DNA of 59,026 bases, filler included. It is 6 parts of 6 records of this genome, joined end to end, with 100 filler letters (N's around TTAATTAATTAA, not from the genome) between each part and the next. Parts side by side here need not be neighbours in the genome. Positions count along the whole stretch, not along the records: positions 53,248 to 59,026 come from SRR31156797_5915; 5 more parts are not named here. The stretch is one strand, 5' to 3'. Positions 23,449 through 59,026 of the stretch are shown here, in pieces. The translations under genes were made by a program, and so were the position numbers. The notes under the pieces were generated by a model. It made no database searches. It was given only the letters and a program-made list of their open reading frames with translations, and was not told the DNA's origin. Numbering within the stretch: the stretch's first letter is position 1; every line of letters starts with the position of its first letter.

Positions 23449-23548
23449 NNNNNNNNNNNNNNNNNNNNNNNNNNNNNNNNNNNNNNNNNNNNTTAATTAA
23501 TTAANNNNNNNNNNNNNNNNNNNNNNNNNNNNNNNNNNNNNNNNNNNN
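23449..23548. other. Artificial contig spacer
   Basis: 44 N + TTAATTAATTAA (stops in all six frames) + 44 N. Confidence 0.98.
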
Positions 23549-29574: not shown

Positions 29575-29674
29575 NNNNNNNNNNNNNNNNNNNNNNNNNN
29601 NNNNNNNNNNNNNNNNNNTTAATTAATTAANNNNNNNNNNNNNNNNNNNNNNNNNNNNNNNNNNNNNNNNNNNN
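29575..29674. other. Artificial contig spacer
   Basis: 44 N + TTAATTAATTAA + 44 N. Confidence 0.98.
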
Positions 29675-35948: not shown

Positions 35949-36048
35949 NNNNNNNNNNNNNNNNNNNNNNNNNNNNNNNNNNNNNNNNNNNNTTAATTAA
36001 TTAANNNNNNNNNNNNNNNNNNNNNNNNNNNNNNNNNNNNNNNNNNNN
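35949..36048. other. Artificial contig spacer
   Basis: 44 N + TTAATTAATTAA + 44 N. Confidence 0.98.
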
Positions 36049-41444: not shown

Positions 41445-41544
41445 NNNNNNNNNNNNNNNNNNNNNNNNNNNNNNNNNNNNNNNNNNNNTTAATTAATTAA
41501 NNNNNNNNNNNNNNNNNNNNNNNNNNNNNNNNNNNNNNNNNNNN
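41445..41544. other. Artificial contig spacer
   Basis: 44 N + TTAATTAATTAA + 44 N. Confidence 0.98.
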
Positions 41545-53147: not shown

Positions 53148-53247
53148 NNNNNNNNNNNNNNNNNNNNNNNNNNNNNNNNNNNNNNNNNNNNTTAATTAAT
53201 TAANNNNNNNNNNNNNNNNNNNNNNNNNNNNNNNNNNNNNNNNNNNN
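53148..53247. other. Artificial contig spacer
   Basis: 44 N + TTAATTAATTAA + 44 N. Confidence 0.98.
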
Positions 53248-53632
53248 CACCGACGACCAGGCCATTGCCGTGGCGGCAAGGGAGAACGCCACCAGCCGGA
53301 AAAACATCAGCGACCTTGAATCCATTCTCAACGACCTGATGAAAAACGCCAAGATCAACGAATCCAGCCGCCTTGCAACCAAGGTCCAGAGTTCCATGTG
53401 CAAGGGGCTTGCCAAAAAATACTCCAGAATCAAGAACCTCGGTGTAAAACAGGCCCCCTTCTATGTGCTTCTGGGGGCAAGGATGCCTTCCATCCTCATC
53501 GAGACATCGTTCATCAGCAACAAGACAGAGTGCAAACGCCTTGTCAGCTCAACCTATCAGGAACGCCTGTGCGACGCCATCATCGATGGGGTCGAACGCT
53601 ACATAAAGGAGACCAACCCAAAGACCTTCTAA
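53248..53632 (+). CDS. N-acetylmuramoyl-L-alanine amidase (Amidase_3), C-terminal part (5' truncated)
   Basis: AARENA, GVKQAPFYVL.GA.MPSILIETSFISN..E. Confidence 0.88.
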
Positions 53633-53652
53633 CCTGTATAAAGGAGCAGATC

Positions 53653-54444
53653 ATGACATTCAAACACCTGAAGTATGACGTTGCAGAGACCATCGGAACA
53701 CTCACCTTTAACAGACCCAAGGCGCTGAACGCCCTGAACCGGGAACTGATCGAGGAGCTTGGCATCGTCATCGACAGGGTTGAAGCCGATCCCGATATCA
53801 AGGTTCTTGTGTTGACTGGCGCCGGAGACAAGGCCTTTGTGGCCGGCGCCGACATCTCGGAACTCACCGAAATGAACGCCCTCCAGGCCAAGTATTTTTC
53901 CGCAAAGGGCCAGGAGACCTTTTCCAGGCTCGAAGCCCTGAGCATCCCCGTGATCGCGGCCGTCAACGGATTCGCCCTTGGCGGCGGCACCGAGGTGGCC
54001 CTTGCCTGCGACTTTATCTACGCTTCTGAAAAGGCGGTGTTCGGCCTGCCTGAGATCACCCTGGGCCTCATTCCCGGCTTTGGCGGCACCCAGCGCCTGG
54101 CACGGCTTGTGGGCCCCAACCGGGCAAAGGAGCTCATCTATACCGGCGCAACCGTACCCGCTCCCCAGGCAGAGGCCTACGGCATTGTCAACAGGATCTT
54201 TGCACCGGAAGAACTCATGGACGGGGTGATGAAAACCGCAAAGAAGATGGCCCGCATGGGACGGGTCTCCATCAGGGCGGCCAAGGAAGCCGTCAACACT
54301 GGATTACGCACGGATCTTGAAACCGGCTGCAAAATCGAGAACAACGCCTTTGCCCTGTGCATGGCAAGCACGGACGCCAGGGAAGGCACCCAGGCATTCC
54401 TTGAAAAACGGAAAGCCGCGTTCACAGGGACCCTCGAGAAATAA
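53653..54444 (+). CDS. Enoyl-CoA hydratase/crotonase
   Basis: Start MTFKHL at 53653 after AAGGAG. NRPKALNAL, FVAGADI, GFALGGGTE, PEITLGLIPGFGGTQRL. Confidence 0.93.
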   Translation: MTFKHLKYDVAETIGTLTFNRPKALNALNRELIEELGIVIDRVEADPDIKVLVLTGAGDKAFVAGADISELTEMNALQAKYFSAKGQETFSRLEALSIPVIAAVNGFALGGGTEVALACDFIYASEKAVFGLPEITLGLIPGFGGTQRLARLVGPNRAKELIYTGATVPAPQAEAYGIVNRIFAPEELMDGVMKTAKKMARMGRVSIRAAKEAVNTGLRTDLETGCKIENNAFALCMASTDAREGTQAFLEKRKAAFTGTLEK

Positions 54445-54452
54445 TTTTTTTC

Positions 54453-54482
54453 TTGACAAGGCATTTGATTCCCGATAGACAT
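54453..54482 (+). promoter_or_regulatory. Possible sigma70 promoter for the paaK leader
   Basis: Perfect TTGACA at 54453-54458 with an imperfect -10 (TAGACA) at 17-bp spacing. Confidence 0.45.
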
Positions 54483-54515
54483 AAAAATCAAATTAACTCA
54501 AAAGGAAGAAAAACA

Positions 54516-54596
54516 ATGGCATACAGGTTCTATTTTATATATTTTTTTAAGGCAGGCTTTCGATTTACAAAGTCTGCCCATGGAAAGATTATATAA
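54516..54596 (+). CDS. Putative Phe/Tyr-rich attenuator leader peptide, MAYRFYFIYFFKAGFRFTKSAHGKII (26 aa)
   Basis: RBS AAAGGAAG at 54501-54508. Six Phe and three Tyr codons, seven of them in codons 3-11. Overlaps alternative hairpins. Confidence 0.7.
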   Translation: MAYRFYFIYFFKAGFRFTKSAHGKII

Positions 54597-54669
54597 GAAC
54601 CAAGCCATAATCTGACAATAGAAACCATGGGTGGACTCGAAGAGAACGAAACCCATGGTTTTTTATTTT
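54551..54669 (+). promoter_or_regulatory. Transcription attenuator (1:2 hairpin, 2:3 antiterminator, 3:4 terminator)
   Basis: 1:2 GGCAGGCTTT/AAAGTCTGCC; 2:3 AGTCTGCCCATGG/CCATGGGTGGACT; 3:4 AAACCATGGGT/ACCCATGGTTT followed by a T-tract. Confidence 0.7.
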
Positions 54670-54670
54670 C

Positions 54671-54710
54671 AAGGGCCAGGGGTTTTAAAATCCTTGAGTC
54701 CTTTTTTTTT
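54671..54710 (+). terminator. Second terminator-like hairpin in the paaK leader
   Basis: AAGGGCCAGGGG-ttttaaaa-TCCTTGAGTCC followed by T9; imperfect stem. Confidence 0.5.
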
Positions 54711-54753
54711 GGTTTTCTAACAACCGGCCCCAACGCCAAAAGGAGAATCACTT

Positions 54754-56058
54754 ATGCCGATCTTTAACATGGATTTTGAAACAATGCCCCGGGAAGCCCT
54801 GGCGGCCATCCAGCTCTCACGACTGAAAACCACCCTGGAAAAGGTATATGCCACCGTTCCCTTTTATCGTGAAAGCTTTAAAAAGGCCGGCATCACCCCC
54901 CAGGACATCAACTCCCTGGATGATCTGCGCCGCGTGCCCTTCACCACTAAGCAGGACCTGAGGGACAACTACCCCTACGGCATGTTCGCCGTTCCCATGG
55001 AGAACGTGGTCCGGATCCATGCAAGCTCAGGCACCACCGGAAGCCCCACCGTTGTCGGCTACACCAAGCGGGACATCAAAACCTGGTCCGAACTCATGGC
55101 AAGGGCCCTTGCGGCCGGCGGAGCCACCAGCCGGGACATCCTCCACAACGCATACGGCTACGGCCTTTTCACCGGCGGCCTCGGGGTCCACTACGGCGCC
55201 GAACGCCTGGGCGCATCGGTCATCCCGGTCTCCGGCGGAAACACCAAACGCCAGATCATCATCATGAAGGATTTCAAGCCCACCATCCTCACCGGCACCC
55301 CCTCCTACATCCTCCACCTGGCTGAAGTCGCCGAGGAGATGGGGGTATCGTTCAAGGATCTGAGCTTCAAGGCCGGCATCTTCGGGGCCGAGCCCTGGTC
55401 CGAGGCCATGCGGGAAGAGATCGAATCCAAGCTCGGCCTCAAGGCCATCGACATCTACGGCCTGAGCGAGATCATGGGACCCGGCGTCAGCATCGAGTGC
55501 ATCCAGGCCCAGAACGGCCTCCACATCTTCGAGGATCACTTCATCCCGGAGATCATCGACCCTGTCACCGAAGAGGTGCTGCCCTACGGAGAGACAGGCG
55601 AACTCGTCTTCACCTCCATCACCAAGGAAGCCTTTCCCATCATCCGGTACCGAACCCGGGACATCACCTCCCTGAATCCCGAACCCTGTATCTGCGGCCG
55701 GACCCACGTGCGCATGAAGAAGGTTTCCGGCAGAACCGACGACATGCTGATCATCCGGGGCGTCAACGTCTTCCCTTCCCAGATAGAGGATGTTCTCATG
55801 AAAAGCGACAATATTCTGCCCCATTACCAGCTTGTGGTTGACAGATCCGGTAATCTTGATACTCTAACGGTCAAGGTCGAGGTCAGCGACCAGATATTCT
55901 CGGATCAAATCAAGAACCTCCAAAACATGGAGGCCAAAATTTCCAAGGACATCAAGGAATATCTGGGCGTGTCCGCCAAGGTGAAGCTGGTTGAACCGAA
56001 AGCCATTGAGCGGAGCCAGGGCAAGGCCATACGGGTTATTGACAACCGGAACATTTAA
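54754..56058 (+). CDS. paaK: Phenylacetate-CoA ligase
   Basis: [63 protein letters not shown]. Confidence 0.93.
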
Positions 56059-56081
56059 CACAAGCAAGGAGGTAAACTGAC

Positions 56082-56513
56082 ATGCGAGCAGAGCAGATAT
56101 CGATATTTCTGGAAAACAAGGCCGGGCGCCTTGCAGAGGTCACTGCCATACTCAGGGATGCAGGCGTCAACATAAGGGCGCTCTCCCTCGCAGACACAAC
56201 GGATTTCGGCATCCTGAGGCTGATCGTCAACGATAACCAGAAAGCGGAGGATACCCTTAAAAGAGAGGGTTTCACCGTGGGTAAGACCGACGTGATCGCC
56301 GTGGAGGTCGATGACAATCCCGGCGGACTCAACAACGTTCTGGACCCCCTCACAAGCGAAGGAATCAATGTGGAGTACATGTACGCCTTTGCCAACCCCA
56401 ACAGAAAGAACGCCATCATGATCTTCCGGTTTGACAACATTGACAAGGCCGTCCAGATCCTGAGCGCAAACAACATCACCGTGATCAAGGGCGAGGATGT
56501 CTACAACCTCTAG
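56082..56513 (+). CDS. Tandem ACT-domain protein (family commonly adjacent to paaK)
   Basis: [45 protein letters not shown]. Confidence 0.92.
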
Positions 56514-56611
56514 CTTCTAAGCTTTCACCCCCCGCACCTGGCTTGCCCCCGTTATTATCGACAGACAAGGGGAGTAAACCAGGTGCGAAGTTTCTGTTGA
56601 GATTCAAAACA

Positions 56612-56650
56612 AAAACGGCCTGCCCGGGAAATTCCCGGGCAGGCCGTTTT
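56612..56650. terminator. Bidirectional intrinsic terminator between the ACT gene and rnfB
   Basis: AAAACGGCCTGCCCGGGAA-a-TTCCCGGGCAGGCCGTTTT between convergent genes. Confidence 0.85.
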
Positions 56651-56675
56651 GTTTGTTATTCTATGTGCCTGGAAA

Positions 56676-57500
56676 TCAGTCCGCGTTTTTTCCTACAAAA
56701 GCGATACAATCCTTAGGACACTTCTCAAGGCCTTTAATGGCCGGTTCTTCAAGTTCCGCCCGGTAGGCGTCGGTGTCCGCCACGGCAATATCCTTCTTCA
56801 TGACAAAGAATTTGTCGGAGGCCTTGACACAGGCCTTGCAGCCGATGCAGCCCTTCTCACACACGCTTGTGACGGGCTTGCCCTTGTCCAGGTTGGAGCA
56901 GAGCACGGAAGGAATTTTATCCTCATGGAAATCGGTCATGGAGATGATGGCCCTGGGACACGCCTTGACGCAGGCACCGCAACCGATACACTTGTCGTAA
57001 TCCACGACGGCAAGCCCGTCCTCGATGTGGATGGCGTCGTACTGGCAGGCGGTCACGCAGTCGCCGAATCCCAGGCAGCCGAATGTGCAGCCCTGGACAC
57101 CGGCAACAAGGTTTGCAGCGGCACACCGCATTTCACCCTTGTATTCGGTTCTGCCCAGGCGATCCTCAAAGCGGGCCCCGCAATGGACCACGGGACGGCT
57201 GGGCACCGAGTCCCCCACATCCACGCCCATGATATCGGCCACCTCGATGGCGCAGTTTTCACCGCCCACCGGGCACTTGTTTACCGGCGCATTGTCCGTT
57301 ACCACGGCAACGGCATATTCACTGCAGCCGAGATAACCGCAGCCGCCGCAATTGGCGCCGGGAAGGGCTTCCAGCACAGCCTCGACCCTTTCATCCACCT
57401 CAACATGGAACTTCTTGTTGGCCCATCCAAGTATGTATGACATGATCACTGCCATGCCAAGCATGGTAACGGCAGCGATGCCTATGGTTATTTCAATCAT
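56676..57500 (-). CDS. rnfB: Rnf complex subunit B (conventional length)
   Basis: TM anchor, [47 protein letters not shown]. Confidence 0.93.
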
Positions 57501-58284
57501 TGATACCTCGAATCTGCTGCTGTAAGTTGGGTTCGATCATTGCCGTCTGAACCTGATCCATGGAGGCTTCCATGGCCACTTCCCCAGTCGGTGTGATGGC
57601 CTTTCTGAGACCGGAGTCCACGCCGGTGAAGCCCATGAAGGCCAAGGCGAGGATACCGCCCACAACCAGTGTGATGGCAGCGCCCTTGAACGGCTCGGGC
57701 ACGTCGCACAGGTCAAGGTCCTCACGGATGCCCGACATGATCACGATGGCGATGGTGAAACCGAGGCCGCCGAAGAGGGCCAGGGTCAGGGACCGTCCGA
57801 GATCCCACGCGTCCGCCGGATTCTCGACCCCTGCCACATTACTCATGATGGTAAGGCAGGCAAAGAGAATGGCGCAGTTGGTGGTGATCAGGGGAAGGAA
57901 CACACCAAAGGATTTATACAGTGCCGGGAAGAATTTTCTCACATACATCTCAACAAACTGAACCGAGGAGGAGATGGAGAAAATATAGACAATGTAGCTC
58001 AGCACGGTAAGGTCAATGGTTGCCGCGGCCTCCTTGGACACGAAAAATCCCGCGATAAAGGAGGAAAGAGGCGCGCCGGGGATCAGCACCATGGTGGTGA
58101 TGGTCCAGCTCAGAAACGCCGCGATGCTGATGACAAAGGTAACGGCGCAACCCATGCCGAAGGCCATGTCAACCCGCCGGGACACACCGATGAAGGGGCA
58201 GATACCGACAAAGTAGTAGAGTACGAAGTTGTTGATAACCGCCGCACTCAGGGCAATCAGAAATATATCGATAATGTAGTTCAT
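57493..58284 (-). CDS. rnfA: Rnf complex subunit A with insertions and a C-terminal extension
   Basis: [27 protein letters not shown]. Confidence 0.9.
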
Positions 58285-58898
58285 ATGCTTCCTCCTGATT
58301 TACGCGCAGAGTACCAGTTGACCAATCCCAGGAGAAGCCCGAGGGTGATGAAGGCCCCCGGAGGCAGTACCATGATGACCCAGTCAGGCCATGCAGCAGG
58401 CAGCAGGTGGTAACCGAAGAGACCGCCGGTGCCGAGGAGCTCCCTTACCGCGGCAATGCTTGCCAGGGCAAGGCCGAATCCCAGGGACTGTCCCAGGGCG
58501 TCGGAGGCCGCAACGAACGGGCCCTGCTTGGACGCACACACCTCACATCGACAGATGATAAGGCAGTTAACGATGATCAAGGGGATATAGGGTCCCAGGG
58601 TCTTGCTCATCTGGTAGAGGTAGGCCGCAAGCACCCTGTCCGCAATGGTCACAAAGGTTGCGATGGTCAGGGTAAAAATGACGATCCGCAGATGGGGCTT
58701 GAGCAAATTCCGGAGCAGGCTGATCACCACGTTGGCGCAGACGAGTACAAATGCCACGGAACACGCCATGGTGATGGCCGGTTTCATTCCATTGGTAACG
58801 GCCAGGGTCGGACAGAGTCCGAGGAGCTGGCGGTACACCGGGTTTTCCGGCAGGATACCCTGCAGGAATCTCTCGGTGGCTGTTGGTTGATCTGCCAT
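58281..58898 (-). CDS. rnfE: Rnf complex subunit E
   Basis: [25 protein letters not shown]. Confidence 0.93.
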
Positions 58899-59026
58899 TA
58901 CTGAACCCCCTTCCCGTCTGAATCTATCAATTGAGCCACCCGGGGTTTCAGATCGGAAACCGCCTGGTTTACAAATTTGGTCACGGCCTTCGAAGAGATG
59001 GTGGCACCGGAGATGGCATCGATCTC
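58898..59026 (-). CDS. rnfG: Rnf complex subunit G, C-terminal fragment (5' part outside the window)
   Basis: Manual translation EIDAISGATISSKAV.. contains the SGAT flavinylation motif. Its stop overlaps the rnfE start (TAATG). Confidence 0.85.
   Translation of the reverse strand, partial: EIDAISGATISSKAVTKFVNQAVSDLKPRVAQLIDSDGKGVQ

Follow-up and report, generated by a model that had tools for sequence, protein, structure and literature searches.

A conserved, putative phenylalanine-sensing attenuator upstream of paaK in Desulfobacterota: a known mechanism on an unusual target

The leader region upstream of paaK

The DNA analysed here (the window) is a stretch of 59,026 nucleotides (nt) made of six contigs joined by N-linkers, and our subject is an RNA element on the last of these contigs, at 53248-59026. 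There, a gene for a paaK-type phenylacetate-CoA (coenzyme A) ligase, followed by a gene for an ACT-domain-pair protein, is separated from an upstream enoyl-CoA hydratase gene by a 309-nt spacer. This spacer holds what we read, with a probability of roughly 80%, as a ribosome-mediated leader-peptide transcription attenuator that senses charged tRNA-Phe. Its first component is an open reading frame (ORF) on the plus strand, at 54516..54596, of 26 codons plus TAA (ATG 54516, TAA 54594-54596). The predicted leader peptide, MAYRFYFIYFFKAGFRFTKSAHGKII, has 26 amino acids (aa), six of them phenylalanine (Phe) and three tyrosine (Tyr), and Phe or Tyr stands at seven of codons 3-11. A Shine-Dalgarno-like AAGGAAG (54502..54508, plus strand) lies 7 nt before the leader ATG, and purine-rich GGA or GGG motifs are found at the matching position in most relatives. 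An ORF listing has no separate entry for the leader, which appears there as the end of a frame of 47 aa with a TTG start (54453..54596).

A sigma-70-like promoter (54453..54481, plus strand; TTGACA at 54453-54458, a 17-nt spacer, TAGACA at 54476-54481) is preceded by a T-run, starts 9 nt after the enoyl-CoA hydratase stop codon and lies 34 nt upstream of the leader ATG. A generic promoter scan did not flag the 54453-54481 motif, the second hexamer of which ends in A. Across the family of related elements described below, 26 of 31 members carry the motif TTGAC[AT]-N16-18-TAnnn[ATC] upstream of the leader ATG, at a distance of 33-67 nt, and its spacer is 17 nt long in 24 family members.

Four segments of the plus strand can pair in alternative ways. 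Segment 1 (54551..54560) is the 5′ arm of the anti-antiterminator 1:2, with 10 pairs to 54569-54578; segment 2 (54569..54583) can pair either with segment 1, via 54569-54578, or with segment 3, via 54571-54583; and both segments lie inside the leader ORF. Segment 3 (54622..54637) has two alternative uses, with 54622-54632 as 5′ arm in terminator 1 and 54625-54637 as 3′ arm in the antiterminator, and segment 4 with its U-tract (54651..54669) provides the 3′ arm of terminator 1 (54651-54661) and a T-run (54659-54669). Helix 2:3, 54571-54583 with 54625-54637, has 13 contiguous pairs, two of them G-U, and encloses an inner stem, AGATTAT/ATAATCT (54586-54592 with 54607-54613); helix 3:4, 54622-54632 with 54651-54661, has 11 pairs and is followed directly by the T-run. 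Helix 2:3 overlaps 3:4 at 54625-54632 and 1:2 at 54571-54578, which makes it mutually exclusive with both.

Folding of each element was compared with 200 dinucleotide shuffles. Folded alone, helix 1:2 reached -14.4 kcal/mol (z -4.74), terminator 3:4 -19.2 kcal/mol (z -4.72) and antiterminator 2:3 with its inner stem -23.2 kcal/mol (z -4.87), while the whole stretch 54490-54680 reached -54.9 kcal/mol (z -6.18); in each case 0/200 shuffles folded as well. An earlier, sequence-only reading of the window had proposed this aromatic-rich ORF with its ribosome-binding site, the three helices with the inner stem and the U-tract, and pheL/trpL-type attenuation of the paaK-ACT genes. The ORF is present as described, and the helices hold up when checked base by base and beat their shuffles. 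The promoter, and a second hairpin described below, go beyond what that reading covered. A short 5′ ORF, a cluster of Phe codons, a predicted intrinsic terminator and mutually exclusive helices, the structural marks of the trpL/pheL/hisL class, are thus all found at this locus. A second ORF of 46 codons (54627-54767), which has its ATG in segment 3 (CCATGGG), would translate both U-tracts of the region into Phe and overlaps the first 14 nt of paaK, shows no evident ribosome-binding site and is probably spurious.

Conservation and covariation of the element

We searched two sets of paaK loci for the element. The first comprised 80 loci from GTDB species genomes with PaaK 75-99% identical to that of the window, searched with an nhmmer profile of the core; the element was present just upstream of paaK, always on the same strand, in 37 of the 80, and 5 of the 43 misses had less than 180 nt of upstream sequence. 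The carriers are mostly Desulfobacterales metagenome-assembled genomes (MAGs), with the cultured Desulfacinum infernum DSM 9756 (locus L092) and Syntrophobacteraceae MAGs also among them. Homologous Phe-rich ORFs, starting with ATG or GTG, occupy the same place in relatives, and the only indels in the leader ORF across the family are of 6 or 15 nt. In 31 leaders the reading frame holds 228 TTY codons and the two alternative frames hold 108 and 97, an in-frame count inflated by the preselection of 30 of these 31 aligned leaders (alignment A1) for an aromatic-rich ATG ORF. A further seven loci were found by the RNA profile only, and in four of these a Phe-rich ORF is clear, one of them starting at GTG and another having lost its stop. 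Among copies that appear decayed, L087 has its promoter abutting terminator 1, the leader and segments 1-2 being gone; in L066 the leader ATG reads AAG; L103 has a leader with a single Phe; and L071 retains a promoter-like motif and the second hairpin alone.

The C-terminal half of many leaders shares an F-R-K-S-x-H-G tail. The nucleotides of this tail are conserved even where the leader stops earlier (L060, L064, L065, L067, L068); because they are kept where the ORF ends before them, the tail reflects a constraint on the RNA and not on the peptide. Similarly, the core of segment 2, AAGTCTnCCCATGG, is nearly invariant in the family and is kept where the leader stop precedes it.

The amino-acid composition of the leaders points to Phe. 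Among 792 residues of the 31 paaK leaders, Phe, Tyr and tryptophan (Trp) occur in the ratio 228:34:4, and Tyr 6 and Tyr 9 of the window are Phe in its nearest relatives; the three Tyr codons of the window thus appear to be a local feature, one of which, Tyr-9, occupies the modelled control position. The suggestion in the sequence-only reading that the switch senses both tRNAs does not survive as a family trait.

The second set consisted of 30 loci, from 41 genomes around G001 (the genome nearest to the window), with PaaK 63-67% identical to the window's. A Phe-rich short ORF is found in 19 of the 30, and a CCACGG...CCGTGG-T-run terminator in 20; 15 of these terminators are preceded, at a distance of 35-42 nt, by CTCGTGG. 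Where the group of the window has CCATGG, this variant has the central A-U pair replaced in segments 2, 3 and 4 together, a joint change which fits both 2:3 and 3:4 pairing. In loci of this type (L004, L005, L015, L016 and others) a conserved CTTGAC-N17 promoter is seen by eye, only about 8-10 nt separate its predicted -10 region from the leader ATG, and the leader of the Desulfovibrio-type variant may be translated from a nearly leaderless mRNA.

Covariation supports both alternative structures. In a MAFFT alignment of the 31 sequences, helices 2:3 plus 4:5 (the latter is described in the next section) are 90.3% paired, compared with 29.5-47.2% when the partner is slid; six pairs are doubly changed, and 0/500 shuffles reach either the paired share or the covariation score. 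We also built a covariance model, R1, from 33 sequences and used it to align 81 matches, 79 of them distinct. Helix 2:3, which lies outside the structure given to R1, is 92.1% paired in the 79 distinct sequences, with 7 of 13 pairs doubly changed and 0/500 shuffles as good. On the same alignment (A5), which was fitted to 1:2 plus 3:4 and hence leans toward that structure, those two helices together reach 84.3% pairing, and double changes are seen at 18 of their 21 pairs. Taken separately, helix 1:2 is 74.9-77.6% paired in the family, with all 10 of its pairs doubly changed on A5, and helix 3:4 is 92.6-92.7% paired. An unguided RNAalifold consensus recovered the 2:3 helix, with 11 pairs, four of which have compensatory changes. 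Two features by which the sequence-only reading had said its proposal could be checked, conserved aromatic-rich ORFs upstream of paaK and compensatory changes in the helices, are therefore both found, and ORF, frame, private promoter and both alternative helices are conserved as attenuation of the pheL/trpL type would lead one to expect.

Related contigs are present in three marine-sediment metatranscriptome runs. At about 96% identity, one of these spans 54557-55184 and so runs through both terminators as far as paaK; another bridges 54375-54626. The libraries may contain DNA, and assembled contigs show neither ends, levels nor strand, so that we conclude nothing from them.

A proposed mechanism, its second terminator and its rivals

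We propose that the private promoter (54453-54481) would start a transcript whose first cistron is the 26-codon Phe-rich leader. With ample Phe-tRNA, the ribosome would clear both segment 1 and segment 2 and reach the stop codon (54594); terminator 1 (3:4) and a second terminator (5:6) would then form, and transcription would end before paaK. Without translation 1:2 would form, with the same outcome. When Phe-tRNA is scarce, a ribosome would stall on the last aromatic codons (codons 9-11 in the window) and cover segment 1, allowing 2:3 to pair, and the freed segment 4 would probably hold segment 5 long enough to weaken terminator 2, giving read-through into paaK and the ACT gene.

Folding of the window with a ribosome masked in (a footprint of 30 nt) is consistent with this scheme. 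Helix 2:3 forms with the A site at Tyr-9 or Phe-10 only (P 0.94 and 1.0), and in part with the A site at codons 11-14, while terminator 1 forms without a ribosome, with a ribosome at codons 1-8, and at codons 15-27 up to the stop. In the window, control would on this modelling fall to the final aromatic codons of the run, and the outcome agrees with the stalled-ribosome logic that had been drawn from the letters of the sequence, in which a ribosome held on the aromatic codons favours 2:3 and one that runs on to the stop favours termination.

The second terminator-like hairpin (54671..54710, plus strand) joins segment 5 (54671-54684) to segment 6 (54689-54703) in a helix that has a single bulge, and nine T come next (54702-54710); the hairpin folds at -16.4 kcal/mol (z -2.55), with 2/200 shuffles as good. 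Segment 5 can alternatively pair, through 54676-54683, with segment 4 (54651-54658), at 7 of 8 positions in the window. A strict test applied sequence by sequence finds, in 53 of 81 family members, a hairpin with a U-run downstream of terminator 1. On the MAFFT alignment helix 5:6 is just 57.4% paired, its loop lengths differing and its arms being out of register. A first test of 4:5 pairing, by shuffling segment 4, was noisy, with the automatic choice of the 3′ arm often taking the U-run, and was replaced by permutation.

A six-segment relay (1:2, 3:4 and 5:6 versus 2:3 and 4:5) is plausible, and kinetic if real; set against a second terminator that is leaky and works on its own, we would call its odds about even. 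The other view, that 3:4 is the single regulated terminator and that the second hairpin is a leaky fail-safe or a diverged duplicate with no 4:5 relay, is a serious contender that we rate a little short of an even chance. It would account for the 28 of 81 members without a second terminator by the strict test (L155, L161 and L162 clearly lack one) and for the resemblance of the 5′ arm of hairpin 2 to that of hairpin 1, as duplication would give; it also agrees with equilibrium folding, which keeps 5:6 (P56 0.82-0.87) when 2:3 forms. Yet a strong constitutive terminator between the attenuator and its gene would defeat the switch, and segment 4 fits its own downstream arm better than it fits those of other members: cognate 4:5 duplexes average -12.18 kcal/mol against -10.84 kcal/mol for non-cognate ones, using model-aligned arms, and 0/2000 permutations reach this. 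Helix 4:5 is itself 90.3% paired in the 31-sequence alignment, with double changes at 2 of its 8 pairs, and with a ribosome at codon 10 it forms at P 0.94 to 0.75 until segment 6 has been fully transcribed.

Other explanations concern the element as a whole. The hairpins could be plain terminators that end transcription of the enoyl-CoA hydratase gene upstream, with the Phe/Tyr ORF having arisen by chance in a T-rich spacer. The spacer is indeed AT-rich (G+C content 0.27-0.42 over 54450-54700), the hydratase stop at 54444 has no further terminator behind it, L071 keeps its promoter-like motif and second hairpin behind the hydratase gene, and contigs from RNA libraries, which may contain DNA, bridge the hydratase 3′ end and the leader. 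We nevertheless hold this to be extremely improbable: a promoter motif stands between hydratase stop and leader in those 26 of 31 members, the start, the frame and the in-frame Phe excess of the ORF are conserved, and an antiterminator with compensatory changes would be useless to a plain terminator. Moreover, the G001-type variant has no hydratase gene upstream, a divergently transcribed gene being there instead, and operons for aromatic biosynthesis and for importers carry this module in front of them as well. The choice between the hairpins could also be made by a factor acting in trans, for instance an uncharged tRNA or an RNA-binding protein (perhaps the ACT protein loaded with Phe), and the leader ORF would then be irrelevant; protein-mediated attenuation of aromatic amino-acid operons exists elsewhere, as in TRAP of Bacillus, and an ACT gene directly follows paaK in 30/30 and 62/76 related loci, with or without the attenuator. 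The leader is conserved as an ORF, however, the element also controls operons without an ACT gene, the alignments show no evident repeated protein-binding motif, and a cmscan of 53900-55300 against Rfam 15, with E up to 10, returned sub-threshold chance matches only (best 19 bits, against a gathering score of 39), with no leader, T-box or riboswitch family among them; we give this explanation very little credence. Lastly, the attenuator might be induced by excess Phe or phenylacetate through nascent-peptide arrest, in the manner of TnaC, with paaK catabolic. The family precedes DAHP synthase/pheA, aroA′-aroB′-type and aroK-aroC operons, which an excess of product should not induce, and the F-R-K-S-x-H-G tail, which could pass for a conserved arrest peptide, is kept as nucleotides beyond early leader stops, as a constraint from an RNA helix would have it. 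PaaK is best known from phenylacetate catabolism, and the nearest solved chains come from an aerobic degrader. Some Desulfobacterales do degrade phenylacetate, as described in PMC5109826; the same description has the phenylacetate-induced ligase of Desulfococcus multivorans as a FadD-type enzyme, and neither of the two PadJ/PaaK-type genes. An arrest-based, catabolic switch is very unlikely on this evidence.

The reading that we prefer is a ribosome-mediated, Phe-sensing attenuator, and several points weigh against it, beside the preselection of leaders mentioned above. Clear antitermination was modelled at just two codons of the window and depends on the assumed footprint of about 30 nt. When masked folding was extended to the 31 leaders of the family Phe was not enriched at antiterminating positions (60 of 217) relative to all codons (228 of 823), and in 6 of the 31 no ribosome position removed terminator 1 in this crude equilibrium model; we have not used the family-wide result as support. 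For the full transcript at equilibrium, 5:6 is kept with 2:3 formed (P56 0.76-0.87, P45 0.10-0.24), and read-through would need a kinetic effect because terminator 2 persists. Three of the seven loci found by RNA profile only look decayed, one having lost its start codon, one having a single Phe and one having its leader deleted. The sequences are related, so that shuffle controls overstate significance; slid-partner controls and group-wise changes agree with the shuffle results. About half of the paaK orthologue loci are without the element, many with paaK directly behind the enoyl-CoA hydratase gene, so that the regulation, and perhaps the role of the enzyme, would not be uniform. Finally, translation of the leader and Phe-responsive read-through, like the 4:5 relay, are things that we infer.

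Rfam gives the name Phe_leader to the family of pheL-pheA and pheM-pheST leader-peptide attenuators. These attenuators of Gammaproteobacteria, as presented in PMC3082878, resemble our element in having a short leader with a run of Phe codons, an intrinsic terminator that precedes the structural gene and an antiterminator that overlaps it; in both, the position of the ribosome would act as sensor. They differ from it in that there is no sequence or structure match (E up to 10), that the target here is a CoA ligase with an ACT protein and not pheA or pheST, that the leader here is longer and runs through segments 1 and 2, and that two tandem terminators are present in a different lineage, the Desulfobacterota. 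The his operon leader of Salmonella and E. coli has six segments, with A:B, C:D and E:F alternating with B:C and D:E. As in that leader, our six-segment chain would propagate a shift at the first pair to the last; there, only E:F is a terminator, whereas here 3:4 and 5:6 both carry U-tracts and the 4:5 step rests on comparative counts. Attenuation of aromatic amino-acid genes in sulfate reducers has a precedent in the putative attenuator, from the Merino database, given in PMC1173090 before the aroA′-aroB′-pheA-aroF-tyrA-trp supraoperon of Desulfovibrio vulgaris. Akin to that case, R1 finds leaders rich in Tyr, Phe and Trp before operons for a DeoC aldolase and DHQ synthase II in Desulfobacterales; in contrast, the passages of PMC1173090 on this supraoperon name no paaK, importer or leader peptide sequence, and the paaK copy is dominated by Phe. 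The sequence-only reading knew of no leader-peptide attenuator described for paaK, and our searches agree, having found no paaK leader or attenuator described in the full-text literature they covered (subscription journals and supplements lay outside them), nor in the parts of PMC2965389 and PMC545781 that bear on the question. We suggest that a conserved Phe-sensing attenuator before paaK is a known mechanism on an unusual target, with a probable two-terminator relay.

Gene neighbourhood, regulon and the role of PaaK

The last contig of the window begins with the 3′ end of an amidase gene (a reading by eye), followed by the enoyl-CoA hydratase gene (53398-54444), the attenuator, paaK and the ACT gene, after which rnfB, rnfA and rnfE are convergent to paaK-ACT. 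Its DNA is 93% identical to a Desulfobacteraceae MAG contig (L031) and 91% identical to a Desulfobacterium MAG contig (L032), both with the same gene order. The hydratase-paaK-ACT order is kept in many Desulfobacterales, with or without an attenuator between the first two genes, and in loci without one the hydratase-paaK spacer is often shorter than 60 nt. The N-runs around the linker TTAATTAATTAA lie at 23449-23548, 29575-29674, 35949-36048, 41445-41544 and 53148-53247 of the window, and because the contigs are artificially joined, the genes left of 53148 (an IS240-type transposase, a LysR regulator, a Liv transporter) are not physical neighbours of the element. G001 shares 23% of words with the window, and its PaaK is just 65% identical; since this is the nearest genome, the window contigs may stem from more than one organism. 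Our comparative work used relatives around G001 together with the genomes behind L031, L032, L047 and L061.

The paaK gene (54754..56058, plus strand) has its own AAGGAG at 54740-54745 and encodes a protein of 434 aa with Pfam AMP-binding and AMP-binding_C_2 domains. It scores 637.6 bits against TIGR02155, for which the cut-off is 646.3, over residues 9-432 of 434, and it matches the solved PaaK chains 2y27 (PaaK1) and 2y4o at 506.5 and 494.8 bits. The ACT gene (56082..56513, plus strand; 143 aa) begins 23 nt after paaK and is probably in the same transcript; its product matches Pfam ACT_8 at 106.8 bits and PDB 2f06, deposited as a ‘conserved hypothetical protein’, at 118 bits. That the ACT protein is an amino-acid-binding partner of PaaK is our conjecture.

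The same RNA family stands before other operons. An R1 search of 151 genomes sampled from the order of genome G043 gave 41 matches in 33 genomes, of which 26 precede a PaaK-type ligase, six a Liv-type binding protein (with a permease next where checked) and eight aromatic-biosynthesis genes; the remaining one has no ORF of at least 90 aa. The eight aromatic cases comprise a DeoC aldolase with DHQ synthase II (five), DAHP synthase with chorismate mutase/prephenate dehydratase (one) and shikimate kinase with chorismate synthase (two). Even the weaker matches (40-48 bits) are all correctly oriented directly before such operons, and all have aromatic-rich leaders. In the four closest relatives, with PaaK 92-99% identical to the window's, a second copy of the element is found before a Liv-type ABC operon. 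Liv-type ABC operons preceded by the attenuator family (binding protein, two permeases and ATPase) are seen at L123-L126, L140, L156-L159 and L169; their leaders are rich in Phe and Tyr (MNYNAFYFYSFSFFGYFFTKSGHGGSV is an example), and they are candidate importers of Phe, Tyr or aryl acids. One locus that R1 missed, at about 1040-1190 of L167 (G043), lies before a chorismate mutase/prephenate dehydratase gene (pheA operon) and has an aromatic-rich leader, MVYFYFRGFFDRGLPVVH, longer if read from a GTG start, then GGTCTGCC.../...GCAGCAGACC/TCTGCGGC-T-run hairpins, an architecture which is that of the element described here.

The ratio of Phe to Tyr to Trp in the leaders follows the target, at 228:34:4 before paaK, 67:24:0 before liv operons and 24:24:5 before aro operons. 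Because leader composition tracks the target, the paaK switch would be chiefly a Phe sensor, and the pattern as a whole would place paaK-ACT in a Phe-starvation regulon.

Thus, with a putative Phe-starvation switch in front of it, and sharing a regulon with an importer and with the genes that make aromatic amino acids de novo, paaK is best read as anabolic. We think it likely that PaaK activates phenylacetate to phenylacetyl-CoA, which would be reductively carboxylated to phenylpyruvate and so give Phe. An anabolic role had been put forward from the sequence of the window, with an indolepyruvate oxidoreductase (Ior) as the carboxylating enzyme; the occurrence of the same RNA family before aromatic-biosynthesis operons and Liv-type importers supports the role indirectly, while the link to Ior remains conjectural. 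A look for iorAB, which that reading had suggested, showed that each of four close relatives has about four iorA paralogues, none of which adjoins this paaK. The lack of adjacent iorAB counts against the proposed route, as does the absence of any aromatic leader before iorA at the seven loci inspected in the four close relatives, of which four hold one paralogue and three hold a different one. The relatives also have pheA, so that the route would be a salvage path beside the de novo one.

An aryl-acid route to aromatic amino acids via indolepyruvate oxidoreductase is established in Methanococcus maripaludis (Porat et al., cited in PMC4162585). The route proposed here, from aryl-acetate to aryl-acetyl-CoA and then to the 2-oxo acid by reductive carboxylation, is like the one outlined in PMC4162585, with the differences that M. 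maripaludis is an archaeon for which that account reports no regulatory RNA, and that we draw the route from regulation and from the iorA paralogues of relatives. At 1182-4791 of L118 (G043:C1, about 4823400-4827466), and also at L115 and L117, a Trp_repressor-family gene (PF01371, 58 bits) directly precedes iorA, iorB and a paaK paralogue, which at L118 is 44% identical to the window PaaK. This may be a repressor-controlled cluster for aryl-acid assimilation, and the Trp-repressor-family/iorA-iorB-paaK cluster of G043 is a second hint tying aryl-acid activation to amino-acid status.

More broadly, we give an even chance to the reading that starvation for aromatic amino acids is met in the Desulfobacterota by a regulon built on one homologous family of leader-peptide attenuators. 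In that reading many copies would be six-segment, two-terminator switches with a codon mix tuned to the target, and the family would co-control aro operons, a Liv-type importer and PaaK-ACT; PaaK of sulfate reducers would be mainly biosynthetic, turning environmental phenylacetate into Phe by ferredoxin-dependent reductive carboxylation, with the ACT protein as its Phe-sensing partner.

The mechanism itself is a textbook one and its target is unusual: a starvation switch before a gene that is usually annotated as phenylacetate catabolism. The element offers a testable handle (one promoter, one leader, two U-tracts) on the long-standing finding that some anaerobes make aromatic amino acids from aryl-acetates. 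As a conserved RNA family unmatched in Rfam 15, it could improve annotation of the Desulfobacterota and metabolic models of sulfate-reducer communities, and the regulon of paaK-ACT, Liv-type importer and aro/phe operons points to candidate genes for uptake of Phe or aryl acids. If the broader reading is true, phenylacetate in anoxic sediments would be a nutrient that organisms obtain by cross-feeding, and many of the ‘phenylacetate degradation’ labels given to genes of anaerobes would be mistaken.

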